61,546 nucleotides of DNA from Actinomycetes bacterium. Lineage in GTDB: Bacteria; Actinomycetota; Acidimicrobiia; Acidimicrobiales; JAJYXR01. Under the pieces are notes generated by a model, which was not told the DNA's origin, did not search any database, and saw only the letters and a program-made list of their open reading frames with translations. Both the position numbers and the translations under genes were made by a program. Positions 7,226-49,016 of the stretch are shown here, one piece after another (position 1 is the stretch's first letter; the number at the start of each line of letters is the position of its first letter). The stretch covers positions 1 through 61,546 of the forward strand of contig JAJYXW010000040.1 in assembly GCA_021801525.1 (NCBI GenBank). The letters are read 5' to 3'.

Positions 7226-8479
7226 TTGCGTTCGGGCGTTCCCGCTTTGATGACCTCACGAAGCCTCACGCCTCGGCACGCGGACCTCGCCGAGGCCTCC
7301 TCTTCCTCTGACGGGATCGCCTCTGACGGGATCGCCTCTGACGGGATCGCCTCTGACGGGCTCTCCACCGCTGGGCAGTCGCCGATCGGCCACGTCGTTG
7401 CCGTGTGCGCCACAGCCGGCTGGCTCGCCGCAGGTGCAGGTGACACCCGCGTGCTCTGGGACAGCCGCGTGCTCTACCAGTCACTTCTCAGGTGGGGAGC
7501 GGGGTCGGTAGTGCCGCTGGCCCGCTTCGCCCGCTGGCAGGCACCGTTGGTACCGGCGGCGAGGCTGGCGTCGCACCCGCCCGGCAGCACGTCGCGCTGG
7601 AGGTCCACGACGCTGGCAAGGAGCATTCGCGACCTCGCCCAGGTACGCCACGTGGTGCCACCGGCCGGCACCGAGGTCCTCTACGGCCATATCGCATTTC
7701 CGGCCTGCGGCGGGCTCCCGACCATATGGAGCACCCAGGGAGTGCTGGACACCTATCCGGGCGTCTGGTTCCCCGAGCAGTCTGCCCGCACCCACGAGCG
7801 ATTCGCCCAGCGCGCAGCGGTCGTCCAGTGCTGGTCCGAGCTCGGTCGCCGCGGCATGCTCGAGCGCTGCGAGCACCTCGAGCAGTCCCGCGTCCTTGTG
7901 GTCCCTCCCCTCGTGTACGTCGACCTCGACTTGGCGGACGGCACCGGCCAGCCGTCGCGAAATCGCGAGCCCGGCGACGTGAAGGCGATCTTCGTCGGTG
8001 CCGAGGGCGCCCGAAAAGGGCTGCGGGAGCTCGTCTCCGCCGTGGATCGCACCGGTCCGGGCCTCCGCTTGGAAGTGGTTACCGCAGATCCCCGGCCGGA
8101 GCAGCTCCCTTCGTCAGTGGACTGGCTCGGACCGCTCCCCCGTGCCGAGGTGCTGCGCCGTTTCACAGAGAGCGACATCCACGTGCTGCCGAGCCTTACG
8201 GAGTCCTTCGGCGGCGTATGCGTGGAGGCGCTCGCGGCGGGCATTCCCCAGGTGCTGGCTCCCGGCACCGTGCCGGCCGAGATAGCCGGGGACAGCGCAA
8301 TCCTGGCGGACCCCTCCGACCCGGCGGCAATTGCCGGTGCACTCGCTAGGCTTGCCGGGGACGCCTCGTTGCGCGCACGACTCGGCCGTCTCGCCCGGCA
8401 GCGCTTCGAGAGCTTCTACTGCCCCGAGGCCGTGGGCCCGAGAATGGCCGAGCTCGTCGAGCAAGCTTGCGCCAGCTGA
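7226..8479 (+). CDS. glycosyltransferase, GT4-like
   Basis: C-terminal motif VLPSLTESFGGVCVEALAAGIPQV..DPSDPAAIAGAL..LRARLG. The start is uncertain. The first ~85 codons contain two tandem repeats and may be leader sequence rather than coding. Confidence 0.7.
   Translation: MRSGVPALMTSRSLTPRHADLAEASSSSDGIASDGIASDGIASDGLSTAGQSPIGHVVAVCATAGWLAAGAGDTRVLWDSRVLYQSLLRWGAGSVVPLARFARWQAPLVPAARLASHPPGSTSRWRSTTLARSIRDLAQVRHVVPPAGTEVLYGHIAFPACGGLPTIWSTQGVLDTYPGVWFPEQSARTHERFAQRAAVVQCWSELGRRGMLERCEHLEQSRVLVVPPLVYVDLDLADGTGQPSRNREPGDVKAIFVGAEGARKGLRELVSAVDRTGPGLRLEVVTADPRPEQLPSSVDWLGPLPRAEVLRRFTESDIHVLPSLTESFGGVCVEALAAGIPQVLAPGTVPAEIAGDSAILADPSDPAAIAGALARLAGDASLRARLGRLARQRFESFYCPEAVGPRMAELVEQACAS
7306..7363. 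repeat. 15-bp tandem repeat, about 3.8 copies (CTCTGACGGGATCGC)
   Basis: Read directly. If translated in the frame of ORF 7226 it gives SDGIASDGIASDGIASDG. Confidence 0.9.
7447..7482. repeat. 18-bp tandem duplication (CCGCGTGCTCT core)
   Basis: CCGCGTGCTCT occurs at 7447 and 7465. Each copy carries a candidate GTG start (..RVLWDS RVLYQS..). Confidence 0.7.
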
Positions 8480-12036: not shown

Positions 12037-13539
12037 ATGGCCACGAAGCAGCTTCGTACTGCGTTCTTCCCCATTAGGGAAGCGCTCGCGCGAGCCGCGC
12101 GACATAGCGTACGCGGCATTGCGGCGTCGCTCCTGGCCGGGGGTGTCCTCGTGGCAGTGATGCTGGCAGGTGTCCAGAGCGCGTCGGCGCAGGTGGGATC
12201 GAACCCTTTCTCCACGGACGGCAGCGTGGTGTCGAGCGGGCAGCCAGTCCCGAACGTCCCCGGAACCACCGGCAGCTTCGTCCTCGGCAGCCTCACCAAC
12301 ACTACCGGGTACATATCGCCGGCCGAGAACGCGAGTGGGCAGGTGACGATCGACGAGACAAGCTCCACTTCGTACTACTCGTGTAACTCCGCCGGTAAGA
12401 GCTGCACTGTCTCGAGCGCGGCCAGCGTGGTCGCACCCGGGAACGAGCTGTTCGTGTCCGGCCACTATTTCGTCGAGAACGGCACCTACGAGCTGATCGC
12501 CGAGTATGTCTTCAGCCCGCCGCCGGCATCTTCGACGGCGCCGCCCGCGCCTCCGGCGCCGCAACCCACCGGCTTCTACGACTACATACCGGCCAACGCC
12601 TTCGGCGTCACGGGTTATGTCACGTCACCGGGCACCTACCTCGTCAACCAGCTCCTGTGGAGCCCGCTGTGGGGGTTCACGCTCGGCCACTTCGGGAGGT
12701 TCCCGAACGGCTACGGATGCGGATCTGCGAGCAACTGTACGACTGAGCAGATCGCGCTCTCCAACTCCAACCATCTATTCATCGACGCGACCTCCTTGAC
12801 GACCACGTTCTGGCTGGCCAGCGCCACGGCCACCACTTCGAGCGGCGAGGTTGTGGGCTGCAGCTACAGCCAGAGCACGGACACCTTCGCCGTCATCGAC
12901 TACTACGGATCGAAGGACGGTCTGACCGCCACCGGGAGGTTCCTCTACAGCGGGAACCAGTGGCGCTTCACAGCGTCCAATGTGTTCTCGCCGCCGCCGG
13001 CGCCGCCAAGCGCCTACGCGGCGGGAGGTGTCTGCGCCTCGACTCCCCAGAGGATCGGCCCGGTGAGCGCCTCGTCTCCTGCCGTGTCGGAGTCCTCGCA
13101 TGGAACCGCCCAGCCGGGAGGCACCGGCTACGACAACACGACCTGGCAGGGCACGTTCGGCACAGGGTTCGGGCCCGAGGGCGGGGTCTTCTCGGACGGA
13201 ACGATCCAGCTCACGCTCGACTGGGCACTCGTTCCCGCCGCCGGAAACCTGCCGGAGCACTGGCACTTCTATGGCACCTATACCGCATCCAACCAGTCAG
13301 GGTCGACAACCCTGGCAGGACAGATAAGTGGCTCGGCGGGGGTGGCGTCCACTGGCGCGGGGACCGAGCCTGTCAACGCGACCATGACCATGGACCAGGG
13401 AACCGGCCAGTTCGCCGGATTCAGCGGGTACGGGACCGTCTCCGGTGACGCCGCTTACAGCGCCGGCCAGCCGCTCCCCGTGCTCCAGAGCCTCGACTTC
13501 GTCTGGAACATTCAGTCGACGTCGAGCTCCGGCACGTAG
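12037..13539 (+). CDS. secreted protein of unknown function with internally duplicated segment and Pro-rich linkers
   Basis: RBS GAGAGGAGAG lies upstream of the start. N-terminal TM/signal sequence GIAASLLAGGVLVAVMLAGVQSASAQ. The motif (Y/N)VFSPPPA(S/P).. occurs twice, about 155 aa apart. Confidence 0.6.
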   Translation: MATKQLRTAFFPIREALARAARHSVRGIAASLLAGGVLVAVMLAGVQSASAQVGSNPFSTDGSVVSSGQPVPNVPGTTGSFVLGSLTNTTGYISPAENASGQVTIDETSSTSYYSCNSAGKSCTVSSAASVVAPGNELFVSGHYFVENGTYELIAEYVFSPPPASSTAPPAPPAPQPTGFYDYIPANAFGVTGYVTSPGTYLVNQLLWSPLWGFTLGHFGRFPNGYGCGSASNCTTEQIALSNSNHLFIDATSLTTTFWLASATATTSSGEVVGCSYSQSTDTFAVIDYYGSKDGLTATGRFLYSGNQWRFTASNVFSPPPAPPSAYAAGGVCASTPQRIGPVSASSPAVSESSHGTAQPGGTGYDNTTWQGTFGTGFGPEGGVFSDGTIQLTLDWALVPAAGNLPEHWHFYGTYTASNQSGSTTLAGQISGSAGVASTGAGTEPVNATMTMDQGTGQFAGFSGYGTVSGDAAYSAGQPLPVLQSLDFVWNIQSTSSSGT

Positions 13540-13598: not shown

Positions 13599-14690
13599 AT
13601 GCGGATACTACTCACTCACCCCACCTCGTGGCCGGCTGTGCGCCGCGGGATGGAGCGGCTCTTCGCGGACCTCGAGCGATACCTTCGCGACGAGGGGCAC
13701 GAGGTTCACACCGTAACGGCCCGGCGGAGCTCGGGCTCCCGGCCGGTCCATGGTCGGCTCGCTCGCAGGATCCCCGATCCCGCTGTCACTTACCAGCTCC
13801 GGGTCGCGCTCGCTATTAGGAGACACCGGCCGGATATCGTCCACGGCCTCCACTATCTCGACGGCGCCGGGCACAGGCTTGCCGGTCGGGCAGGCGAGGT
13901 CGCTCCGCTGGTGTTGCACATTCCTGGCATCCCCAGTGCAGCCGCACTCGCCTGGCGCCCGTACCATGGGACCATCTTCCGCGCCTCCTCCAGGCGCGCC
14001 ACTGCGGTGATAGCGATGAGCAGGGCTGCCCAGTCCGCGCTGGCTCGCGACTTCGGCCGCCGTGCCGTCGTCGTTCCGAACGGGGTCTTCACCTCGGAGA
14101 TGGCGGCACTCGCCTGCAGGGTCGAGCGCTCCGAACGTCCCACCGTCCTCTTCCCGGGGGACGCGACCGATTCGCGCAAGCGCGTCCACCTCCTTGCCGA
14201 CGCGTTGGCGTTGCTCCGGGAAAGCTTCCCCGGCCTGCGGATGCTGGTGGCCTGGCCGATAGACGAGAACACGCGGCTAACTCTCCAAGCGCGATCGGGC
14301 GTCCCGGTGGAGGTGCGCGACGTACCCGAGCCGGCGATGATGGCGGCTCTCTACGCCGAGGCTTGGGTCACCTGCCTACCCTCTGTCGACGAGGCGTTCG
14401 GGCTCGTGCTCGTCGAGTCTCTTGCGTGTGGCACGCCGGCCGTCGGTGCCCGCCACGGCGGGGTTCCCGAGGTTCTCGGTGAACCCGCCTGGCTGGCTGA
14501 GCCCGATGACGCACGGGACTTGGCCCGGACGCTCGAGCGGGCCCTGGCTGATTCGAGCACGCCGCAGTCGCCGACCCACTGCAGCGAGCTTGCCGCACCC
14601 TTCGACTGGTCGGCTGTCGGGCCGCGTCTGGTCACTCTGTACGAGGAGGTCCTGGAGTCGAGACCGCGTCTCGCCTGGGCGCGGTCATGA
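13599..14690 (+). CDS. glycosyltransferase, GT4 family
   Basis: MRILLTHPTSWP..; LPSVDEAFGLVLVESLACGTPAVGARHGGVPEVL. Confidence 0.85.
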   Translation: MRILLTHPTSWPAVRRGMERLFADLERYLRDEGHEVHTVTARRSSGSRPVHGRLARRIPDPAVTYQLRVALAIRRHRPDIVHGLHYLDGAGHRLAGRAGEVAPLVLHIPGIPSAAALAWRPYHGTIFRASSRRATAVIAMSRAAQSALARDFGRRAVVVPNGVFTSEMAALACRVERSERPTVLFPGDATDSRKRVHLLADALALLRESFPGLRMLVAWPIDENTRLTLQARSGVPVEVRDVPEPAMMAALYAEAWVTCLPSVDEAFGLVLVESLACGTPAVGARHGGVPEVLGEPAWLAEPDDARDLARTLERALADSSTPQSPTHCSELAAPFDWSAVGPRLVTLYEEVLESRPRLAWARS

Positions 14691-15871
14691 CTCACACCAC
14701 CGGCAGCCACACCACCGGCAGCCACACCACCGGCGCGCGCGGTGGTGACAGTAGGAAGGTCGTGCTCGCCAACCCTTGGCTGCCCCCCGATGTCCGCCGG
14801 GGAAGCGAGGTAGTCATGTCCGAGCTCGCCGGCTGGCTGAGCAGGCATGGCTGGGAACCGGAGCTACTCGGCGGGGCCTTGCCCCAGGCCCGCTCCCGCC
14901 CCGCGTCGCGCCCGCGCGGAGAAGATCCGATCGAGGGGGTTGCGTCACGGCGTGTCAAGGCTCCCATCGAGCGAAGCTGGCCCGGAGGGCTCGATCGCGA
15001 CGCATCGCTTGTGCCGGTCATGGCGCGAGAGATGCGGCGTGTACGGCCAGCGGTAGTCCACTCTTTCCACTACACGGACGCCGCTGCCGCTCGCCTCGCC
15101 CGCCTGCCCTACATCGCCACCTGCGAGGGCATACCCCTCCGCTGCTCGTTCTCGGGCAAGCCTCTGCACAGGGCCCTGCTCGCCATGGGCTGGTCGGGCG
15201 CAGCCATCCTGGTCAGCCCGAGCCGGGCAGTTGCCGACCACTTGCGGATCACGTTCGCCCTGGCTTCCGAGGTCGTCCCCAACGGGATCGACATCTCGCG
15301 CTACGAAGGTCTCAGCGAGCAGCGCATCCCTGGGATGATCGTCTGCGCGGCGGCACCCGAGGACCGCCGCAAGCGAGCCGAGGTTCTCGTCGACGCGTTC
15401 GGCATCCTCGGGACGCGCATGCCAGAGGCTCAGCTCGTCTTCGTGGCAGGCCCGGTGAGCAAAGTGCGCGAGGAAGCGCTGCTCGCGCGGCTCGATGCAC
15501 GCCGGCGTGAGCGCGTCCGCTTCCTCGGCCAAGTGGAGCGTGCCGAGCTCCTACGCTGGTACGCGCGCGCCTCGGCGACGTGCCTGCCCAGCGTGAACGA
15601 GGCGTTCGGCATGGTGCTCGTCGAGTCCATGGCGGCGGGCACCCCTGTCGTCGGCGCCCGTCACGGAGCCATCCCCGAGATCGTGACGGACTCGACCGGC
15701 GCGACCTTCGCGCCCGACGACCCGTCCTCGTGCGCGAGAGCTCTGGAGGAGGTCCTCTCGTGGGACGACGAGCGCTGCGTCGCCGAAGCCTGCCGTGCCC
15801 GCGCTGCCTGCTACGACTGGTCCTGCGTAGGCCGGCTCGTCGCCGAGCTCTACACCCGTGCTGCCCCATGA
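14687..15871 (+). CDS. glycosyltransferase, GT4 family
   Basis: ATGA overlap with the preceding GT4 gene. LPSVNEAFGMVLVESMAAGTPVVGARHGAIPEIV. Confidence 0.85.
   Translation: MTHTTGSHTTGSHTTGARGGDSRKVVLANPWLPPDVRRGSEVVMSELAGWLSRHGWEPELLGGALPQARSRPASRPRGEDPIEGVASRRVKAPIERSWPGGLDRDASLVPVMAREMRRVRPAVVHSFHYTDAAAARLARLPYIATCEGIPLRCSFSGKPLHRALLAMGWSGAAILVSPSRAVADHLRITFALASEVVPNGIDISRYEGLSEQRIPGMIVCAAAPEDRRKRAEVLVDAFGILGTRMPEAQLVFVAGPVSKVREEALLARLDARRRERVRFLGQVERAELLRWYARASATCLPSVNEAFGMVLVESMAAGTPVVGARHGAIPEIVTDSTGATFAPDDPSSCARALEEVLSWDDERCVAEACRARAACYDWSCVGRLVAELYTRAAP
14693..14735. repeat. 15-bp tandem repeat, about 2.9 copies (CACACCACCGGCAGC), in frame at codons 3-16 of the GT4 gene
   Basis: Encodes HTTGSHTTGSHTTGA directly after the ATGA junction. 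Confidence 0.9.
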
Positions 15872-15940
15872 GACTGGGCTGCCCATGAGACTGGGCTGCC
15901 CATGAGACTGGGCTGCCCATGAGACTGGGCTGCCCATGAC
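15860..15940 (+). repeat. 17-bp tandem repeat, about 4.7 copies (GCTGCCCATGAGACTGG), forming four ATGA-linked 6-codon mini-ORFs between the GT4 gene and the flippase gene
   Basis: ATGs at 15868, 15885, 15902, 15919 and 15936. Each ATG AGA CTG GGC TGC CCA TGA ends on the A of the next ATGA. The first ATGA contains the GT4 stop and the last ATG is the flippase start. Confidence 0.95.
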
Positions 15941-18584
15941 GCCTATCCTTCCGAGCACCGACACTGCGTCCCCCGAGGGCGCCCGGCCTTCGCTCGTGAC
16001 CCTCGCCGGGCGTGGCGCGCTCGTCAGCTTCGGCTTCAGTGTCGCGATGCAGTTGCTTTTTTCCGTACAGGGCATCGTGCTCGCGCGCATGCTCGGACCG
16101 GCCGTCCTCGGCCTGTACGCGATCGCCGTCGCCGTAGTCGGCATCGCTGGAGCGCTGAAGAACACCGCTATCGCGCAGAAGCTGGTCCAAGAGCGCGACG
16201 TCGACCTGTTCACCGCCTACCGGGTGGCTCTCACCCTCGAGCTCCTGCTCTCGAGTGCCTGTGCCGGCGTCCTCCTGGTGGCGTCTCCGATCCTGGCAGC
16301 GGTGTACCACCGCCCGCAGCTTTGGCCGGTCACCAGCGCGCTCGCCGCGTCGCTGCTCGCTACATTGCTCGTGGAGCTGCCCGTCGCGCTCTTGTACCGC
16401 CAGATGCGCTTTGCGCGCCGCGCAACCCTGCTCGCCGTCGCCCCCGTGTCCGGAGCCGCGACGAGCCTCGTAGCTGCGTACCTCGGAGCTGGCATATGGA
16501 GCCTGGTCGCCGGCGACCTGACCGGGCTTGCAGTCGCAGCTGCCGTGGTCGGCTTCGCGGCACCGATGCGTCCGGGGCTGTGCTTGGACCGGCGCGTGCT
16601 ACGGCGCTACCTCAGCTTCGGATGGCCGTACTGGGGCAGTGGGATGCTCTCGGCAGCAGCGGGGTGGGGAGCCATAGCAGCTGTGTCCGCGACAATGGGG
16701 ATATCGGTTGTCGCCTTCTTCGAGCTCGCCCTCGCTTGGAGCCGGCAGGTGCTGAAGGTCGATACCGCTCTCGCCGATGCCGCATATCCTGCGCTCTGCG
16801 CGCGCCCTGCCGCTTCTGATAGCACGATACGCGCGTTCTCGCTGACTAACCGCATCTCCATGCTGTTCGCGGCGCCCGCGGGCCTAGGGCTGGCCGTGCT
16901 TTCAGGGCCGGCGGTCGCGGTGCTTCTCGGTCCCCCCTGGATGCCGGCCGTACCTCTCGTCGCCGCCGCGGCTATTGCCGTCACGCTCGACGCCCTCGGA
17001 CACAACTGGCACGTCTTTCTTGCATCTCGTGGAATCACCTGGCCGCGTCTCGTGACCACTGCCCTCGCGGTCGCGTGGACGGGCCTGGTGCTCGTGCCCG
17101 CGCTGGTCACCTTCGGCATAATCGGTGCGAGTGCCGCCATTGCCGGCATGGGAGCCGTCTCCCTGGTGGTGAGGCAGCACTTCGTCCGCCGCTTCGTCGG
17201 TCCTGTCAACCTGGTGCATATGGTGAGGCGCGAAACCTTCGCCGCTGCGATCGCCGCCGGTATCCTCCTCGCTGCTCGGATCCTCGGCTGGGACCCGGGC
17301 GGTGCCGTGGGCCTGGTGGAGCAGGGTGCGTTTTACCTTGCGATCTTCGGCGCAACGGCGCTCCTCGTCAGCCGGGACCTCATCGCGCTGGCCATCTCCA
17401 TCCTGCGCGTTCCCCCCCAACCCATCTCCGCAACTCCTCCCCAGCCCTCTCCTTCCCGCACGCCGACCGGCGTCGCCTGGCGCCGCGAGCTAGAGCTCAC
17501 AGCTCGCATGACAACCCCCGAGCCGATGGCCTTCCCGTTGCTCGTGGCAGCTGACCAAGCAGGTGGAGCCATGTGGGTCACCACGCGCGACTGGCCGGCG
17601 CTGGGCCGCCTGGACTTGGCGACAGGCACGTGGCGCTGGACACGCCTTCCCGCGTTTCCCCACGCCCCGACTCCCGACGGGTATGGCGGGTGCTGGAGCG
17701 CCCTCACACGCTCGAGTGCACTAGCCCACGTCGGCGCGGACGGCAACGCCTACCTGGTGAGATTGCCGCGTACTAGGGAGCTCCTCGTGACGGCAATCTC
17801 CGCGGAGCGCCTGTTCGCCGTGGACGCGGATCGCAAGCTGCTCTGGAGCCTTCCGGCGATCCGCCCCGAGGCTCCGCACAACCTGCCAGGTGCCCTGGAG
17901 CCCACTGAACCCCTGGCCCTCGTGCTCCCAGAGGAAATGGTCCGCCCGGATTTCGCCGTGCGCGCCATCGGCGGCGAGGTATGGGTTGGCGACACCCAGA
18001 GCGCTGTCATCGCGGTCTTCGAGCTCGGAATGTCGGGAGTGCCCCGAGCCTCGGGAGCCGCGGGAGCCGCCCCCGAGGCCTCCCTGCGCACCCTCGCTGG
18101 GCCCCACCCCTGCAGGGCGATGGTCGCCGACGAGCGCCGGGGAGGAGTATGGCTCGGCGCGTCGGAGCGCAATGCGCTCAGCCTGGTCGACCCGGCAGGC
18201 CGGGTGCTCTCCAGCATCGAGCTGCCATCCACACCCTTCGGCATCGCCCTACTAGCCGACGGGAGGCTTGCCGCCGCACTCAGAGAAAGCGATGCCGTCG
18301 TCCTCGCCGATCCCGAGCTAGGCAAGCTCGAGATGCTCGACCTGCCCGATGGCTCCGCGCCACTTGGGTGCGCCGCGGGCGTCGTGCCTGGGATCCACGC
18401 CGGCGAGGAGCGCGCACAAGGCTCTGTCTACGTCACGCTGTCCGGGCGCTCCGAGATAGCCGTGCTCGCGACTCCTCCGCCCTGCAGCGAAGGCGAGCCC
18501 GGAAGCCTCAGGCGCCCCGGGGCGATCCAGCCACAGGTTCCGTCGCTTGGCCTGCCGCACCAGGCAAGCGCACATCTTCGTTGA
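15936..18584 (+). CDS. Wzx/MOP-family polysaccharide flippase fused to a ~380-aa C-terminal extracytoplasmic domain (beta-propeller-like, tentative)
   Basis: The first ~490 aa are polytopic and match a polysaccharide-biosynthesis-protein layout. A Pro-rich linker (PPQPISATPPQPSPSRTP) follows. The soluble region after it has repeated strand-like segments (..MWVTTRD..LGRLDL.., ..VWVGDTQSAVIAVFE.., ..VWLGASERNALSLVD..). Confidence 0.7.
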   Translation: MTPILPSTDTASPEGARPSLVTLAGRGALVSFGFSVAMQLLFSVQGIVLARMLGPAVLGLYAIAVAVVGIAGALKNTAIAQKLVQERDVDLFTAYRVALTLELLLSSACAGVLLVASPILAAVYHRPQLWPVTSALAASLLATLLVELPVALLYRQMRFARRATLLAVAPVSGAATSLVAAYLGAGIWSLVAGDLTGLAVAAAVVGFAAPMRPGLCLDRRVLRRYLSFGWPYWGSGMLSAAAGWGAIAAVSATMGISVVAFFELALAWSRQVLKVDTALADAAYPALCARPAASDSTIRAFSLTNRISMLFAAPAGLGLAVLSGPAVAVLLGPPWMPAVPLVAAAAIAVTLDALGHNWHVFLASRGITWPRLVTTALAVAWTGLVLVPALVTFGIIGASAAIAGMGAVSLVVRQHFVRRFVGPVNLVHMVRRETFAAAIAAGILLAARILGWDPGGAVGLVEQGAFYLAIFGATALLVSRDLIALAISILRVPPQPISATPPQPSPSRTPTGVAWRRELELTARMTTPEPMAFPLLVAADQAGGAMWVTTRDWPALGRLDLATGTWRWTRLPAFPHAPTPDGYGGCWSALTRSSALAHVGADGNAYLVRLPRTRELLVTAISAERLFAVDADRKLLWSLPAIRPEAPHNLPGALEPTEPLALVLPEEMVRPDFAVRAIGGEVWVGDTQSAVIAVFELGMSGVPRASGAAGAAPEASLRTLAGPHPCRAMVADERRGGVWLGASERNALSLVDPAGRVLSSIELPSTPFGIALLADGRLAAALRESDAVVLADPELGKLEMLDLPDGSAPLGCAAGVVPGIHAGEERAQGSVYVTLSGRSEIAVLATPPPCSEGEPGSLRRPGAIQPQVPSLGLPHQASAHLR

Positions 18585-19515
18585 CGCCCTGGCCCGTGCT
18601 CTTCTGCCCCGTGCTGTTCTGCCCCGTGCTGTTCTGCCCCGTGCTGTTCTGCTGGGCCTGCCCTGTCTCCGGAGCGCCACCGCCCCCGATGCCGTCAGCG
18701 GGTACGCCCGGTAAATCGCCCGCACCCGTGCCGGTGATACCGGCCGCCCGGAGCGCCACCTCGCGCAGAGTGTCCAACGCCTGCCTGCGTATCTCCAAGA
18801 AAGCGGGCTCGAGCATCATCTGCTCGGTCCTCGGCCGCGGCAGCTCGATCGGCAGCTCCAGGGCTATGCAGCCCGGGCGAGTCCCCATGACGAGCATCCG
18901 GTCTCCGAGGAGGATCGCCTCCTCCACGTCGTGAGTGATGAACATCACCGCGACCTGGAGCCTCTCCCAGAGCGAGAGCAGGAACTCCTGCAGGTCCTGG
19001 CGCGTCTGGGCGTCGAGCGCGCCGAAGGGCTCGTCCATGAGGAGGATCTTCGGCGACATGACGAGCGCCCGGGCGAGCGCCGCGCGCTGCTGCATGCCCC
19101 CGGACAGCCGATAAGGCGGGTAGCTGCTGAATCCTGAAAGGCCGACGACGTCGATCATCTCGTCGACCCTCTTCCAGTCGACCCGGCCGCCCTGCAGCTC
19201 GAGGCCGAAGGCGACGTTCTTCCTGACGCTCAGCCACGGATAGAGCCAGGGTTGCTGGAACACCATGACACGCTCGGACCCGGGCGCCTTCACCTCCGAG
19301 CCGTCGAAGAGCACTCGGCCGCTCGTCGCCTTCTCGAAGCCCGCGACGATGCGCAGGAGCGTGGTCTTCCCGCACCCGCTCGGACCGAGCACCGTGAGGA
19401 ACTCGTTGTCGCCCAGCTCGAGGCTCACACGCTCGATGGTGGCCGGCCCGGCGTCACCGCCGGACCGGCCCTCACCGAAGCGAAGGGTGACGTCTCTCAT
19501 CTCGAGGATTGCCAT
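18508..19515 (-). CDS. ABC transporter ATP-binding protein, NitT/TauT family (TauB/SsuB-like)
   Basis: Walker A GPSGCGKTT, signature LSGGMQQR, Walker B LLMDEPFGALD. The C-terminal ~70 aa form a low-complexity tail that includes the QNSTG repeat. Confidence 0.85.
   Translation of the reverse strand: MAILEMRDVTLRFGEGRSGGDAGPATIERVSLELGDNEFLTVLGPSGCGKTTLLRIVAGFEKATSGRVLFDGSEVKAPGSERVMVFQQPWLYPWLSVRKNVAFGLELQGGRVDWKRVDEMIDVVGLSGFSSYPPYRLSGGMQQRAALARALVMSPKILLMDEPFGALDAQTRQDLQEFLLSLWERLQVAVMFITHDVEEAILLGDRMLVMGTRPGCIALELPIELPRPRTEQMMLEPAFLEIRRQALDTLREVALRAAGITGTGAGDLPGVPADGIGGGGAPETGQAQQNSTGQNSTGQNSTGQKSTGQGVNEDVRLPGAAGQATEPVAGSPRGA
18592..18651. repeat. 15-bp tandem repeat, 4 copies (CCCCGTGCTGTTCTG)
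   Basis: Lies just 3' of the flippase stop (18582-18584). On the other strand it falls inside the C-terminal tail of the ATPase ORF (QNSTGQNSTGQNSTGQKSTG). Confidence 0.9.
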
Positions 19516-25278: not shown

Positions 25279-25310
25279 CTCCTCGGCTGCTTCGGTATGT
25301 GCGCTACGGC

Positions 25311-25360
25311 TGCTGGCCGCTGCTGGCCGCTGCTGGCGGTTGCTGGCGGTTGCTGGCGGC
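25311..25360. repeat. 10-bp tandem repeat, 5 copies (TGCTGGC(C/G)G(C/T)), in the divergent promoter region
   Basis: Read directly between the aminotransferase start (25278) and the regulator start (25447). Confidence 0.9.
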
Positions 25361-25369
25361 GCCTTCGAT

Positions 25370-25393
25370 TACCACGTTAGGTACCACGTTAGG
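25370..25393. promoter_or_regulatory. direct repeat TACCACGTTAGG, 2 copies; candidate MocR-family operator
   Basis: Two exact 12-bp direct repeats, plus a third GTACCAG at 25438-25444. MocR/GabR-type regulators are known to bind direct repeats containing ACCA-type half sites in divergent promoters. Confidence 0.4.
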
Positions 25394-25446: not shown

Positions 25447-26907
25447 ATGGCTACCCAAGTGGACCGCGAGTCCCCGGAGCCTCTTTACCGCCAGCTCCGC
25501 AAGGTCATCGAGGAAGGCATCGTCGCCGGCCGCTACGAACCCGATGCTCCCCTTCCGTCTTCCCGTGGTCTCGCGCTCGAGCTGGGTGTCTCGCGAAACA
25601 CGGTGAACCTCGCCTACCAGGAGCTGATGGCCGAGGGGTTCGTGGTGAGCCGCCCCCGCAGCGGCCTCTACCTGAATGACGAGCTCCACCCTGGCCCCCC
25701 AGGCAGTCGTGAAGCAGGCCCTGGCCGGAACCCGAGCCGTGTGGACTGGAGCTCGCGCCTCACGGCTGCCTTGGACTCGGGCCTCCCTTCCATAGAGAAG
25801 ATCCCCGACTGGCAGCGCTACCCCTACGTCTTCGTAGCAGGCCAGGTCGATCCAAGCGCCTTTCCCACCCTCGCATGGGCGCGCGTGCTGAGAGAGGCGC
25901 TCTACCAGCCGCACGCCCACTTCAGCCTGCGCGACGGCGTCTCCTCCGACGACCCGCTCCTGGTCGACCTGCTCTGCCGGAAGATCCTCCCTGCGCGCGG
26001 CATCGACGTGTCACCTGCCGAAGTGCTCCTCACCATGGGCTCCCAGGAGGGTCTCTCGCTGCTCGCAAGGACCCTCCTCGGAATGGGCCATCTCGTCGCG
26101 GTGGAGGATCCCGGCTACCTCGACGCGCGCCACATCTTCGTCCGCGCCGGTGCCCAGCTCGTGCCCCTCGCGGTGGACGGCTCCGGAGTCGTGCCAGCAG
26201 GGGATCTGGCGGATATCGCGCTCTTGCACCTGACCCCCAGCCATCACCACCCCACCAACGTGACCTTGTCCATCGGCAGGCGCCGGCAGCTGCTCGCCCA
26301 GGCCGCGGCGAGTGGCACGATAGTCGTGGAGGACGACTACGACAGCGAACTTCGCTACCAGGGAAGCCCGAGCCCCGCCCTGAAGGGGCTCGACGAGGAA
26401 GGCCGTGTCGTCTACCTCGGCACGTTCTCGAAGTTCCTCGCCCCCGGGCTCCGGCTCGGATACATAGTTGCCGATCCGGAGCTAATCGAAGCGCTGCGCG
26501 AGGACCGCCGCTACGACATCCGCCACCCCCCGGGACACGTGCAACGCGCCATGGCATTGTTCATCGAGTCAGGCCAGTACCAGCGTTCGGTACGCCAGCA
26601 CCGGGGCGCTCTCCGCCGCAAGTGGGAGGCCATGTGCGAGGCGATAGAGCGCTACTTCGACTGGCCTGTCCCGGTGCCGCCCGGAGGGGTGAGCATCTGG
26701 GTCGAAGGGCCCGCCGGCTTGGACGCCCCGCTGCTCGCCCGTGACCTCATGGGCAAGGGCGTGATCATCGAGCGCGGTGACATCTGCTTCCTCGATGCCG
26801 CCGCGCACCGGCACTGCTTCCGTCTCGGCTTCGCCGCCACCCGCCTCGAGTCCGTGGATACAGGGGTTCGCCTGATCGCCGAGGCTGTGGCGGACCAGCT
26901 CGAGTGA
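25447..26907 (+). CDS. MocR/GabR-subfamily GntR regulator (wHTH plus aminotransferase-like domain), TauR-like by context
   Basis: LYRQLRKVIEEGIVAGRY..LPSSRGLALELGVSRNTVNLAYQELMAEGFV, followed by a ~350-aa fold-type-I aminotransferase-like domain. Confidence 0.85.
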   Translation: MATQVDRESPEPLYRQLRKVIEEGIVAGRYEPDAPLPSSRGLALELGVSRNTVNLAYQELMAEGFVVSRPRSGLYLNDELHPGPPGSREAGPGRNPSRVDWSSRLTAALDSGLPSIEKIPDWQRYPYVFVAGQVDPSAFPTLAWARVLREALYQPHAHFSLRDGVSSDDPLLVDLLCRKILPARGIDVSPAEVLLTMGSQEGLSLLARTLLGMGHLVAVEDPGYLDARHIFVRAGAQLVPLAVDGSGVVPAGDLADIALLHLTPSHHHPTNVTLSIGRRRQLLAQAAASGTIVVEDDYDSELRYQGSPSPALKGLDEEGRVVYLGTFSKFLAPGLRLGYIVADPELIEALREDRRYDIRHPPGHVQRAMALFIESGQYQRSVRQHRGALRRKWEAMCEAIERYFDWPVPVPPGGVSIWVEGPAGLDAPLLARDLMGKGVIIERGDICFLDAAAHRHCFRLGFAATRLESVDTGVRLIAEAVADQLE

Positions 26908-26979
26908 GACTGTGCTCAGGGCGTCTCTACAGACTTTGCTCAGGGCGTCTCCAAAGACTGTGCTCAGGGCGTTTCCACG
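26908..26979. repeat. 24-bp tandem repeat, 3 copies (GACTGTGCTCAGGGCGTCTCTACA-like), at a convergent gene junction
   Basis: Starts 1 nt after the regulator stop. The last copy overlaps the 3' end of the rfbG-like gene. Confidence 0.9.
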
Positions 26980-30018: not shown

Positions 30019-31257
30019 TCAGCCGAGAACGGCCTCCCAGCGCGGACGGAGGGCTTCTGGCGCGAAGCAGGCCTCGTAGCGCCGGCGAGCGGCGGCACGC
30101 AGTCGCTCGAGATCGCCGCGGTCGGCTGCCAGCCCCCGCAACACCTCTCCGAGCGCTCCGGCGTCTCCCGGCTCCACGAGAAGCGCGGCATCGCCCGTGA
30201 TCTCCTTCACCGTTCCGATCGTCGAGCCGACTATGGCGACGCCTGCCCGCATCGCTTCGATGAACGTCACACCGAGCGTCTCGTATCGTGCGGGCATCAC
30301 GAGCACGTCAGCTCCGGCAAGGAGGGTGGCCACACTGCGGGGGGGCATGCTCGGGTGCCAAACCACTCGCGGAGAGAACGCGCCGACCGGTTCATGGCCG
30401 ACCACGTGGAGCACCATCCCCTCGACTGCCTCTACTGCCTGGAGCACCTCGGGCAGGCCCTTCAGCCAGCCCCACGAGCCCACGTGCACTGCCACCAGCG
30501 AGGCGCCGCTCTTCCGAGTCGCCTCGCCCCCCCCTGGGAATCTCAGCTTCGCAGGTGGCTCGCCTTCAGGGTCGGCAAGGTCGAGGATCGGCGGGATGAC
30601 CACGACCTTCCCGCTGTCCACGCCCGCCCGCAGCAGGTTGTCAGCGCCATAGTCGCTCCAGCAGACGACGAGGTCCGCTCGTCGGGCAAGGTCACACTGG
30701 AGTCTCGTGTGCAAGTCGCGGACGCGCTCGGCCTCGCCGCCCTGTCGCCAGTTCCAGATCTCGGGAATGACCCCGTTCGTGCTCCAGACAACCGGGGGAC
30801 GCGATGGCCAGGTGAGCACTCCGCGCAGGTGGCTGTAGACGACGTCTACCTCGCGCTTCGCCCATATCGGATCGACGTGCGCAAGTGCCCGCGCATGCCG
30901 CCCTGCACGCGAGCCGATAGACCTACCAAGCTGCACGGGATCGGCCCAGGTCGCACGTGCCCGGCTCGCTGTTGCCCGGCTCGCTGTTGCCCGGCTCGCT
31001 GTTGCCCGGCTCGCTGTTGCCCGGCTCGCATCACGTGGCTCTGGCGTCTTTCGAGCTGCGAGGTCTCGAGCACTTCGCAGAGCCCGGATCACTACCTCGT
31101 CGGCGTGTGGCACCAGCCTTGCCGTGAGCAGACGCGCCTCTAGGTTCTCCCATCGTGTCCACGCCATCGCTCCATGGACTGCGACGTCCCAGGCCACCGG
31201 GCCCACCCGTGCTCGCTCGACCTCGCGTGCGGTCGCGTTCAGGAGAACCTGGCGCAC
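30019..31257 (-). CDS. glycosyltransferase, GT4-like, with an in-frame repeat insertion
   Basis: C-terminal ..VLVMPARYETLGVTFIEAMRAGVAIVGSTIGTVKEI..LLVEPGD. Confidence 0.75.
   Translation of the reverse strand: MRQVLLNATAREVERARVGPVAWDVAVHGAMAWTRWENLEARLLTARLVPHADEVVIRALRSARDLAARKTPEPRDASRATASRATASRATASRATASRARATWADPVQLGRSIGSRAGRHARALAHVDPIWAKREVDVVYSHLRGVLTWPSRPPVVWSTNGVIPEIWNWRQGGEAERVRDLHTRLQCDLARRADLVVCWSDYGADNLLRAGVDSGKVVVIPPILDLADPEGEPPAKLRFPGGGEATRKSGASLVAVHVGSWGWLKGLPEVLQAVEAVEGMVLHVVGHEPVGAFSPRVVWHPSMPPRSVATLLAGADVLVMPARYETLGVTFIEAMRAGVAIVGSTIGTVKEITGDAALLVEPGDAGALGEVLRGLAADRGDLERLRAAARRRYEACFAPEALRPRWEAVLG
30961..31029. repeat. 15-bp tandem repeat, about 4.6 copies (CCGGCTCGCTGTTGC), in frame in the GT4 gene
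   Basis: Encodes (SRATA) about 4 times near residue 80. Confidence 0.9.
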
Positions 31258-43155: not shown

Positions 43156-43181
43156 CAGCACTGTTGGGCAGATCACCCTGG

Positions 43182-43226
43182 CTCCTACCACCAACGGCTC
43201 CTGCCACCAACGGCTCCTGCCAGCCA
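43182..43226. repeat. 16-bp tandem repeat, about 2.8 copies (CTCCT(A/G)CCACCAACGG), in a convergent intergenic region
   Basis: Read directly between the stop at 43155 and the dapE stop at 43270. Confidence 0.85.
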
Positions 43227-43269: not shown

Positions 43270-44346
43270 TTATGCGGAGATCAGCGCCGCCAGCACCCCG
43301 CGGGCCTCGGCGAGCTCCGCTTCGCTCACGTGCTCGTCCGGAGAATGCGCAAGCGAAGGGTCGCCAGGCCCGAAGTTGGCTGCTGGCACGCCTGCGGCGA
43401 AGAACGTCGCCACGTCAGTCCAACCGACCTTGGCCTCAGGAGGGCGACCGGTGGCCCCGACGAGCTTCGCTATCAGCGGGTGGCGGAGAAAGGGCGGCGC
43501 GCCAGGCGCGATGTCCAGGACCTCCACTCTGTCGCCGATTACTTCGTCGAGCACAGGGGAAAGCAGGCGGCGCAACTCGGCTTCGGCCTCAGCTTCGGAG
43601 CGGTCCGGCGCGAAGCGATAGTTCAGGGTGAGCTCTGCCTCTCCGGGCACGACGTTACCTGCCACTCCCCCCTCGACGCGCACTGCCTGGAGCTGATCGG
43701 CATACTCGCAGCCGTCGAGCTCCACCCTGCGTGAGTCGTAGGACCCGAGCAGCGCGAGCAGGGGGGCCATGCGGTGGATGGCGTTCGTGCCCATCCAAGG
43801 GCGTGCAGTGTGCGCCGGACGCCCGCTGAGCCTCACGCGAGCACGCATTGTGCCCTGGCACCCGGCCTGCACGACTCCGCCTGTCGGCTCACAGAGCACG
43901 GCTGCGTCCGCGGCGATCACCTCGGGGCTCTCCACGGCGATGCGGCCGAGAGCGTTCTCGGAATGGTCGATCTCCTCGCAGGCGTAGAACACGTAGGTGA
44001 GGTCCACGACCGGCTCCTCAACAGTGCGCGCCAGGTCCAAGAGGACCGCTATGCCACCCTTCATGTCGACCGAGCCCACGCCCCAGAGTGTGCCCTCCTC
44101 CACTCGTGCGCGCTCGTTGCCGGCGGGACGCACGGTGTCCATATGGCCGGCCAAACAGACTCTCTCAGCACGGCCGAGCCCCGTCCGTGCCACCACTGAG
44201 TCACCCACTCTCAGCACGTCCAGATGTGAGCACGAGCGCAGGTCCGCCTCGAGGATCCCGGCCAGCCGGCCCTCCTTCCGGCTCTGCGAGGGGATGTCCA
44301 CGAGGGCAGCCGCCAAGTCGAACAGGTCATCGGGCAGCTCCTTCAC
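43270..44346 (-). CDS. dapE: succinyl-diaminopimelate desuccinylase (M20 peptidase)
   Basis: ..LVDIPSQSRKEG..LAGHMDTV..GSVDMKGG..; actinobacterial DapE layout; GTG start. Confidence 0.85.
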   Translation of the reverse strand: MKELPDDLFDLAAALVDIPSQSRKEGRLAGILEADLRSCSHLDVLRVGDSVVARTGLGRAERVCLAGHMDTVRPAGNERARVEEGTLWGVGSVDMKGGIAVLLDLARTVEEPVVDLTYVFYACEEIDHSENALGRIAVESPEVIAADAAVLCEPTGGVVQAGCQGTMRARVRLSGRPAHTARPWMGTNAIHRMAPLLALLGSYDSRRVELDGCEYADQLQAVRVEGGVAGNVVPGEAELTLNYRFAPDRSEAEAEAELRRLLSPVLDEVIGDRVEVLDIAPGAPPFLRHPLIAKLVGATGRPPEAKVGWTDVATFFAAGVPAANFGPGDPSLAHSPDEHVSEAELAEARGVLAALISA

Positions 44347-44408
44347 GACCGGCGCGCCTTCACGAGCTGTGCGCCTTCACGAGCAGTGCTTCTTCACGGG
44401 ACGTGATC
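44341..44408 (-). repeat. 17-bp tandem repeat, 4 copies, forming three GTGA-linked 6-codon mini-ORFs that end on the dapE start codon
   Basis: Minus-strand GTGs at 44397, 44380, 44363 and 44346. The mini-ORFs are GTG AAG AAG CAC TGC TCG TGA, GTG AAG GCG CAC AGC TCG TGA and GTG AAG GCG CGC CGG TCG TGA. Each TGA overlaps the next GTG, and the last GTG is the dapE start. Confidence 0.95.
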
Positions 44409-47874: not shown

Positions 47875-49016
47875 CGGCTGCCTCCCGTGCGCCTCATGTC
47901 CCCTGTGCGCCTCGTGTCCCCCGTGCGCCTCATGTCCCCTGTGCGCCTCGTGTCCCCCGTGTGAAGCTCTCCTTGCAGGCTCTGGTCCCTGAGTGCGTCG
48001 GCTGGGGGCAGCTCTGCCAGGATCTCGCCTACTCGCACGCTCGGACCCCCGAGGCGCGCCCGGTATGCGGGGCTTACTTCCGGGCCGCTCCCCTGCCCGC
48101 CAACCTCGCCAGGCTCCAGGTGGACCTCCAGGACGCCACCGGGGTTTCGCACCCGCACGTCGCTCGCGCACATACCTGCGTCGTGCACGACCGCGACGGC
48201 AGCGCAGGTGCCTGTGCCGCAGGCAAGAGTCGCGCCGGCACCGCGCTCCCACACGACGAGCTCCAGGTCGCCGCACTCCAGAGGCGAGCCGGCGCTTACA
48301 GCAGGCCACACGAGCTCGAGATTGGTCCCACCCGGCAGGCACTTTTCTATGGCCGGACCGTGGGCATAGAGAACATCTGCGTCGGGTCGGGAGGCGAGCA
48401 CTACCACGAGGTGAGGGTTTCCGACGCTCGCCAACCGGGCCATCAGGAACGGTACGGCATCGGGGAGGATGGCCTCTCCCACCCGCGGCCAGCGATCGTC
48501 CGAGGCGTCCCATGTCCCCCCGAGCGACACCTCGCCCATGTCCACGCTGGCGAAGCCACTCGCCCTCCCCGTAACCCGGTAATCCACGAGGCGCAGACCT
48601 GCCGCTGTCGACACTCCAATGCTCCCCGGTTCGACAATCCCCACATCGACCGCCGCCTGGACGAGGCAGCGGATCCCATTCCCGCTCATCTCCGCCACCG
48701 AGCCGTCCGCGTTGCGAAGCTCCATGCAAAGTGCAGCGCCGCCAACCGCTGCACGCGACCGAGCACTCGCGCGCGACAGCGCAGTGGCCGGCGACCCAGC
48801 GCTCGCGCGCGCTCCCACGGCAGCTCCCCCCGGGCTGACCCTCATCACGCCGTCGGCCCCGATGCCGTGGTGGCGGTCACAGAGCCAGCGCACCTCGTCC
48901 GGGTCGAGGGCATGGTCCCCAGTCATGTCGACGATGACGAGGAAGTCATTGCCTGCTCCTTGGTACTTGGTCAGGCGGAGCGTGCCGGAGGGTTGGGTTG
49001 GTGGGCTTTCGCTCAC
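47871..49016 (-). CDS. dapF: diaminopimelate epimerase
   Basis: LRLTKYQGAGNDFLVI..; ..SGNGIRC..; ..ACGTGTCA... GTG 49016 forms a GTGA with the miaA stop. The C-terminal ~45 aa tail runs through the 18-bp repeat. Confidence 0.8.
   Translation of the reverse strand: MSESPPTQPSGTLRLTKYQGAGNDFLVIVDMTGDHALDPDEVRWLCDRHHGIGADGVMRVSPGGAAVGARASAGSPATALSRASARSRAAVGGAALCMELRNADGSVAEMSGNGIRCLVQAAVDVGIVEPGSIGVSTAAGLRLVDYRVTGRASGFASVDMGEVSLGGTWDASDDRWPRVGEAILPDAVPFLMARLASVGNPHLVVVLASRPDADVLYAHGPAIEKCLPGGTNLELVWPAVSAGSPLECGDLELVVWERGAGATLACGTGTCAAVAVVHDAGMCASDVRVRNPGGVLEVHLEPGEVGGQGSGPEVSPAYRARLGGPSVRVGEILAELPPADALRDQSLQGELHTGDTRRTGDMRRTGDTRRTGDMRRTGGSR
47887..47958. repeat. 18-bp tandem repeat, 4 copies (GTGCGCCTC(A/G)TGTCCCC(T/C)), at the dapF/hflX junction
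   Basis: Translates as TGD(T/M)RR in the dapF frame and GHEAH(R/G) in the hflX frame. Confidence 0.9.

Follow-up and report, generated by a model that had tools for sequence, protein, structure and literature searches.

Background

In Haemophilus influenzae lic1, CAAT repeats occur together with alternative ATG starts, and short open reading frames (ORFs), e.g. the upstream ORFs (uORFs) of yeast GCN4 and the lambda bar minigenes, modulate the translation of what lies downstream. Here we report on a junction at which a tandem repeat and a chain of short ORFs coincide. The junction lies between the genes for a GT4-family glycosyltransferase (GT4) and a Wzx-like flippase (wzx) on a stretch of 61,546 nucleotides (nt; positions 1 to 61,546, forward strand) of contig JAJYXW010000040.1 (assembly GCA_021801525.1) of an actinomycete; the whole of this stretch is referred to as the window. 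The junction is occupied by a 17-bp variable number tandem repeat (VNTR), a hypermutable minisatellite in a surface-glycan operon, at a place where relatives have a 4-nt gene overlap.

Gene overlaps of this kind are well studied with respect to translational coupling. Of 14 overlapping gene pairs 13 were strictly coupled (Huber et al. 2019, PMC6728339), removal of the Shine-Dalgarno (SD) sequence lowered reinitiation in four of five E. coli pairs (PMC6728339), and coupling was almost abolished when the stop codon was moved approximately 20 nt away (Huber et al. 2023, PMC10666635). A review covers models of unfolding as well as of reinitiation (PMC12548453). Moreover, a leader-gene reinitiation hypothesis has been put forward for bacteria (PMC4833913), a minigene has been reported for axe-txe (PMC8708949), and in M. 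tuberculosis the copy number of promoter tandem repeats varies (PMC12817950).

The junction shares features with each of these systems. As in ATGA-coupled gene pairs, each hop along the array is a canonical -4 overlap, the gene pair simply overlaps in relatives, and the downstream start is without strong signals of its own and lies within structure. The differences are that 65 nt separate the GT4 and wzx genes (other strains: 31-83 nt), which is beyond the reported coupling distance, and that coupling of wzx would need two to five successive restarts through 6-codon ORFs. As with leader peptides and minigenes, very short ORFs are located just upstream of, and overlap, the main start, and they are serial as in GCN4; here, however, the mini-ORFs are identical VNTR copies chained to the stop codon of an upstream gene and not part of a 5' untranslated region. 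Unlike leader peptides they come without an attenuator terminator, and a logic based on regulatory codons is not evident. Like contingency loci, the junction has a perfect array in a surface-glycan locus, with a copy number that outpaces point substitution, and changes in the array can be reversed and inherited and might grade expression. Known contingency loci, however, frameshift a coding region or alter promoter spacing or strength, whereas in the wzx array all that changes is how many stop/start overlaps separate the two cistrons, and no recognisable promoter is affected. The closest precedent in the phylum is provided by the M. tuberculosis promoter repeats, where the repeat alters the promoter (PMC12817950). 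Hence, judging from its sequence, the locus appears to combine two known kinds of element, a VNTR and translational coupling, and what would be new are the serial overlaps built by the repeat. An earlier note on this DNA stated that no device of such form was known to its author, and our literature search likewise found no description of a tandem-repeat-built chain of overlapped mini-ORFs.

A chain of ATGA overlaps between GT4 and wzx

The array (positions 15860-15939, forward strand) consists of 18+17+17+17+11 nt and has five ATGA motifs. It begins with GCTGCCCCATGAGACTGG (18 nt), continues with three copies of the unit GCTGCCCATGAGACTGG and ends with GCTGCCCATGA, which is followed by the flank CGCCTATCC. 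Tandem Repeats Finder returned a period of 17, 4.6 copies, 98% matches and a score of 151, i.e. a near-perfect tandem array such as contingency loci and VNTRs have; this score is the second highest in the window after that of a 36-bp array at 47884-47961 (score 156). The ATGs embedded in ATGA are located at 15868, 15885, 15902, 15919 and 15936, and our chain finder returned exactly this path. Specifically, the GT4 gene (14687-15871, forward strand) terminates on the first TGA (15869-15871), which sits inside the first repeat unit and is overlapped by the first ATG. Four mini-ORFs follow on the same strand (15868-15888, 15885-15905, 15902-15922 and 15919-15939), every one of which reads ATG AGA CTG GGC TGC CCA TGA (MRLGCP) and has a TGA that overlaps the next ATG. 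The TGA of the fourth overlaps the wzx ATG at 15936, where the 882-residue ORF (15936-18584, forward strand) begins. These readings agree with the earlier note, which had described a unit repeated about 4.7 times, the same five ATGs, the first of them on the GT4 stop, four chained MRLGCP ORFs and the fifth ATG as the start of the 882-residue gene.

The ATG at 15936 is the first start codon of the wzx frame, which is free of stops from 15906. As an alternative start, GTG at 15996 was considered and rejected; it is without an SD sequence and would place the conserved RGALV motif only four residues downstream of the start vs at least ten in relatives. Two minus-strand ORFs that cross the array (15312-16310 and 15551-16213) were rejected as genes because array lengths differ among strains by 17, 18 and 34 nt, which are not multiples of three and shift their frames.

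Allowing up to two mismatches, the 17-bp unit has three matches in the window where 0.04 are expected, all at the junction. The unit is thus confined to this locus within the 61.5-kb window and does not behave as a dispersed repeat of the repetitive extragenic palindromic (REP) or miniature inverted-repeat transposable element type. In composition-matched shuffles of the window, chains of four NTGA links occurred 0.06 times per shuffle. Neither the right flank nor the 28-nt repeat had an exact match when the JGI metagenome collection was scanned.

With a period of 2 mod 3 and an ATGA in every unit, each ATG opens a frame that ends on the next ATGA, and gain or loss of units by slipped-strand mispairing therefore leaves both proteins untouched. 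The statement in the earlier note that 17 nt is exactly the period required holds as arithmetic, but it is less remarkable than was suggested, a 2 mod 3 duplication of any ATGA being sufficient.

The number of units differs among near-identical strains

The comparison set was made up of contigs encoding members of the 99%-identical protein cluster of the flippase, and 15 further assemblies (several NCBI metagenome-assembled genomes, ENA assemblies, a JGI metagenome and Logan runs) span the junction; loci other than the window carry L numbers. All 15 belong to the same uncultured species (at most 0.4% divergent) and all carry the array, which excludes that it is an artefact of a single assembly, as the earlier note had allowed for. 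Allele lengths were measured between the common flanks CTCTACACCCGT and CGCCTATCC. The alleles are 46 nt (L015, L017 and L018), 63 nt (L007 and L011), 64 nt (L008 and L009), 80 nt (the window, L010, L001, L012, L013 and L016), 97 nt (L014) and 98 nt (L006), and in L111 the gene spacing implies five steps. Between the first ATG and that of the flippase there are two, three, four or five steps, and the 16 assemblies have at least nine allele sequences, with internal variants such as a second 18-nt unit, a ATGTGACCGG unit, GACCGG units and a synonymous GCC in the first unit.

This variation is found on a background of very few substitutions (43 variable sites and pairwise 0-32 single nucleotide polymorphisms, SNPs, over 8537 gap-free aligned bases), and it bears out the length heterogeneity that the earlier note had anticipated. 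L008, L009 and L010 show no SNPs over the 8537 bases, yet their junction alleles are 64, 64 and 80 nt, and one or both of the 15-mer arrays that flank the junction also distinguish the three (see below). The window and L001 are 99.65% identical across 14.6 kb, with one indel. We estimate at least six or seven independent length changes at the junction vs 0.005 substitutions per site, and the rate of length change would be roughly a thousand-fold above the substitution rate. Copy number varying far faster than point substitution is what is seen at contingency loci.

None of the nine alleles breaks the path that leads from the stop of GT4 to the start of wzx. Most have 6-codon steps throughout, and a 12-codon step is present where the second unit is 18 nt. 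In L001-type alleles the unit corresponding to the second mini-ORF (15885-15905) reads ATGTGACCGG; its TGA has become TGT and a single 23-codon ORF replaces three 6-codon steps. This ATGT allele is present in five of the 16 assemblies. In the L011 allele the flippase is extended in frame by 17 N-terminal residues. The unbroken path was considered as a sign of selection and rejected as such, since the two relevant alleles are probably one unit deletion apart and the chance is approximately 1/3. Two Logan contigs (L019 and L020) break within the array and are uninformative on switching inside a clonal population.

Relatives have a stop/start overlap at the same gene pair

Homologues of the fusion flippase at a greater distance (identities of 56%, 42% and 43%) are encoded immediately downstream of a glycosyltransferase gene. 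The overlap is TTGA in the L002 orthologue (56% identical, gene order as in the window) and GTGA in that of L004. In L003 (4694-4711) a 10-nt spacer is bridged by a 5-codon ORF, which opens at a GTGA overlapping the stop of the upstream gene and closes at the GTGA of the flippase start.

The C-terminus of GT4 aligns to that of L002 without gaps through the last residue, and the first ATGA therefore marks the ancestral stop position. Since, in addition, the flippase N-termini are of similar length in an alignment with three relatives, the last ATGA is the ancestral start and the array a pure insertion between the two. The suggestion in the earlier note that an ancestral single ATGA junction was amplified is supported in so far as the same gene pair has an overlap junction in L002 (TTGA) and L004 (GTGA) and the GT4 stop is conserved.

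Initiation signals and RNA structure at the flippase start

Predicted pairing with the anti-SD sequence is -4.1 to -4.6 kcal/mol for the internal ATGs, for wzx and for the gene at 14687 (GT4), with -4.1 kcal/mol at the internal ATGs and the wzx ATG. The mean for the window background is -3.9 kcal/mol, and genes preceded by a spacer reach -8 to -14 kcal/mol. The wzx start is thus without an SD sequence, because its value equals the background, and the observation in the earlier note that none precedes the internal ATGs holds as well. Both genes that follow an overlap, i.e. the one at 14687 and the flippase gene, are without an SD sequence.

The repeat unit holds GCCCA...TGGGC, and 1.65 units are predicted to form a 28-nt hairpin with an isolated free energy of -18.2 kcal/mol. 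In the minimum-free-energy fold this hairpin, UGGGCUGCCCA-UGAGAC-UGGGCUGCCCA, with 10 base pairs and one U-U mismatch, is located at 15875-15902 (forward strand). A second copy at 15909-15936 has the A of the wzx AUG as its 3' foot and covers the ribosome-binding region from -27 to +1. The mean probability of being unpaired over positions -20 to -1 of wzx is 0.23-0.36 with the array vs 0.48 for a modelled single ATGA junction.

A scan of 14400-16400 found no sigma-70-like promoter and no terminator, and direct reading upstream of 15936 found no TANNNT motif. An Rfam search of 15500-16300 gave only two sub-threshold matches of miRNA models on the hairpins (E = 0.71), which we dismissed. Taken together, the wzx start lacks signals for efficient independent initiation in the way downstream starts of coupled pairs do (no SD sequence, a hairpin and no promoter-like site). 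The two genes do not themselves share a 4-nt or 1-nt overlap (stop at 15871, start at 15936); such overlaps occur only hop by hop within the array, and in L002 and L004. A leader-peptide attenuator is not indicated, with no terminator-like site in 14400-16400 and hairpins that lack a U-tract.

Possible translation of the flippase through the array

Coupling of wzx to GT4 via the chained mini-ORFs is plausible because the start has no SD sequence despite strong ones elsewhere, the hairpin is predicted at -18 kcal/mol and no promoter-like site is present. Given the missing SD sequence, the buried start and the fact that coupling normally fails beyond approximately 20-40 nt, the flippase would most likely be driven by ribosomes coming from GT4. 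An insert of 48-99 nt should uncouple the flippase unless it rebuilds the overlaps, and this is what the array does. At each ATGA, ribosomes coming off GT4 would terminate and start anew, melting the hairpins on the way, and would so arrive at the flippase start. Each restart without an SD sequence would lose ribosomes, and flippase output should consequently fall as units are added; the array could in that case act as a heritable and reversible dial of flippase output. From the sequence we consider it an even question whether flippase translation is functionally coupled through the chain.

Several points weigh against this reading. First, three to six serial restarts without an SD sequence may yield almost no flippase, which would argue for independent initiation. 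Second, the exact chain of 6-codon ORFs is dispensable, because a natural allele in five of the 16 assemblies lacks one TGA. Third, the geometry comes easily: the chain results automatically whenever an ATGA is duplicated at a 2 mod 3 period (prior approximately 1/3), with 0 mod 3 the flippase would gain an in-frame extension and coupling would likewise be retained, and an unbroken path is near-automatic because a defective unit breaks it only when it is the last one. Fourth, hypermutability is a general slippage trait of perfect arrays here and is not specific to the junction, as the 15-mer arrays on either side, both in frame, vary to the same extent in the same strains. As to the origin, no allele with zero steps (single ATGA) or one step is present among the 16 assemblies, and neither the flanks as they are now nor the L002 orthologue could be shown to supply the six nt GACTGG of the unit. 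Finally, the copy numbers derive from short-read assemblies.

The strong rival is a neutral, tolerated VNTR: slippage would have amplified a unit that happened to span the junction, the array would persist since it is harmless, and the mini-ORFs would be an arithmetic by-product. The flippase would then be made at a low but adequate level whatever the copy number, through weak independent initiation or through unfolding-type coupling that does not depend on the number of units. We regard this as a real possibility, though short of probable. It is in keeping with the variation of the adjacent 15-mer arrays among the same strains, with the overall density of near-perfect arrays (9.7 per 100 kb vs 1.8 in control loci), with their position at gene ends and intergenic sites, as purifying selection alone predicts, and with the prior of approximately 1/3 for the geometry, the near-automatic closure of the path and the tolerated loss of TGA in one unit. 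However, initiation that is independent of copy number has no obvious route, since wzx has no SD sequence and its ribosome-binding region lies in the -18 kcal/mol hairpin, and the published distance dependence predicts an effect of a 48-99 nt insert (PMC10666635). Moreover, both 17-nt arrays of the window are NTGA chains that end on a gene start, with an estimated joint chance of approximately 0.03 (see below).

Alternatively, the array may act as an RNA-structure element, with hairpins that stabilise the mRNA, mark a processing site or form a roadblock, leading to differential decay of GT4 and wzx and making the codons irrelevant. The 28-nt hairpin of -18.2 kcal/mol per 1.65 units speaks for this, and the array region folds better than shuffled sequences with z = -2.2, although this z-score is modest. 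T-to-C variants (GACCGG) weaken the stem and are nevertheless common, a U-tract or terminator and an Rfam match are absent, and, unlike REP-type elements, the unit is not dispersed in the window; we therefore consider this explanation improbable.

That the copy numbers are assembly or collapse errors is very hard to credit: all assemblies are short-read and L019 and L020 break inside the array, but it is present in sixteen assemblies from several projects, alleles of 46-98 nt are shorter than typical reads and k=141, alleles differ by internal point variants as well as by length, and in these contigs variation is also seen, independently, at two other arrays.

With respect to coupling through the array, the natural allele series (two to five steps, a unit without TGA and an in-frame fusion allele) represents a ready-made experiment on reinitiation without an SD sequence, where the efficiency with which the bacterial ribosome restarts and the distance that it can bridge after termination are unsettled. 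If copy number grades flippase output, the array would be a mutational dial that works purely at termination-reinitiation, a layer without an earlier link to phase or rheostat variation. If copy number is without effect, the alleles still show that ATGA-overlap junctions can absorb slippage arrays with the reading-frame logic kept.

A second array upstream of dapE

The earlier note proposed a search for other 17-bp arrays containing NTGA. A second chain is present in the window. On the minus strand, at 44346-44397, three GTGA-chained 6-codon mini-ORFs with a 17-nt period enter the GTG start of dapE, which encodes an M20 peptidase (43270-44346, minus strand; Pfam). The four 17-nt units, read from 44397 to 44346, are CCCGTGAAGAAGCACTG, CTCGTGAAGGCGCACAG, CTCGTGAAGGCGCGCCG and GTCGTGAAGGAGCTGCC. 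They have diverged, with CGTGAAG being invariant; nine columns are invariant in all, and for the four GTGA columns to be among these has a chance of approximately 0.05. Ten of 11 assemblies have one and the same allele, and L109 has one unit fewer with the chain kept.

That both 17-nt arrays of the window can serve as NTGA chains leading to a gene start hints at a selective filter or even at a small class of such arrays, short of proof. A wider proposal sees in tandem NTGA arrays of period 2 mod 3 a class of contingency loci that is under selection and acts on reinitiation, with the wzx and dapE arrays as members; as judged from these sequences we find this doubtful. If true, in such a class slippage would change the number of stop/start overlaps between cistrons, or between a leader and a gene, and output would be graded geometrically while promoter, transcript identity and protein sequence stay unaltered. 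In the glycan cluster, the export of surface polysaccharide would then be diversified within a population.

Candidates were also found in the control loci (546 kb of Acidimicrobiia). One, a 17-nt TTGA array in L081, is unrelated; its intergenic surroundings are AT-rich and promoter-like. The 17-nt chains of L068 and L088 do not consist of repeats and may have arisen by chance. Separately, in L088 (5321-5340) a 6-codon ORF with a 17-nt step bridges the GTGA stop of the upstream gene to the ATGA start of the next gene. The single bridging ORFs in L003 and L088 may be due to chance, or may represent a non-repeat form of the chain.

Other tandem arrays in the window

Near-perfect arrays, defined by a period of at least 10, at least 2.5 copies and at least 95% matches, are approximately five times as frequent in the window as in the 546 kb of control loci (the densities are given above). 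Five of six are located in or adjoin glycan genes, which make up approximately a third of the window (rough binomial p of approximately 0.02); the bias is suggestive, with small numbers.

The two arrays next to the junction are in frame. A perfect 15-mer, CACACCACCGGCAGC (HTTGS) x 2.8, at 14693-14734 covers GT4 codons 3-16, and its alleles of 31, 46 and 61 nt give proteins of 389, 394 and 399 residues. The other, a 15-mer x 4.3 at 18589-18652, encodes part of the C-terminal tail of an ABC ATPase, with alleles of 39, 54 and 69 nt and proteins of 325, 330 and 335 residues. The ABC ATPase gene (18508-19515, minus strand) is convergent with the flippase gene and overlaps it by 77 nt, and its 15-mer array lies 5 nt past the flippase stop.

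Further arrays are a 15-mer x 3.7 at 7305-7360 (SDGIA repeats) in the N-terminus of a GT1 glycosyltransferase, a 15-mer x 4.8 at 30958-31029 in the N-terminus of another glycosyltransferase, a 24-mer x 3 at 26907-26977 across a convergent junction, and the 18/36-mer at 47884-47961 at the 3' end of dapF, upstream of hflX. A 16-mer x 2.7 at 43180-43222 between convergent genes is invariant in 11 assemblies. As a whole, this uncultured lineage has many fast-evolving minisatellites in surface-glycan genes, and these are usable as strain markers.

At 25307-25393, in a divergent intergenic region, a 10-mer x 5.4 (CGGCTGCTGG) is found together with a perfect 12-mer x 2 (TACCACGTTAGG). The neighbours are an aminotransferase gene with a strong AGGAGG SD sequence and a gene for a GntR-aminotransferase-type regulator. 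The 12-mer pair looks like an operator.

Flanking genes and genomic setting

Judged by MiaB, the organism belongs with uncultured Acidimicrobiia-like Actinomycetota, the best identity to species representatives being 67%. No intermediate relatives were found by the MiaB query of the species-representative genomes, and no close relatives of the flippase were found in the same genome set.

The GT4 protein (394 residues) matches the Pfam families Glyco_trans_1_4 (7.7e-25) and Glyco_transf_4 (2.5e-15), and the flippase matches Polysacc_synt_3 over residues 48-340 (Pfam, 3.2e-43). The C-terminal domain of the flippase, approximately 400 residues (17376-18581, residues ~480-882), has only weak matches of beta-propeller type: Vgb_lyase at 6e-07, which is under the Pfam cut-off, SGL, and the surface-layer propeller of PDB entry 1l0q (E = 0.005). 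The flippase/propeller-like fusion is kept in relatives of 42-56% identity.

The glycan-biosynthesis cluster of the window includes a Bac_transf-GT2 fusion, several GT1, GT2 and GT4 genes and the flippase gene, and the window also holds a second glycan cluster with a Wzy_C protein, as well as housekeeping genes. One ORF of the glycan cluster (12037-13539) encodes a 500-residue protein with an N-terminal hydrophobic anchor that is rich in Ser, Thr, Gly and Pro and has no Pfam match. Its DNA matches itself at an offset of approximately 117 nt with 77% identity, which suggests internal repeats, and the product may be a glycosylated surface protein.

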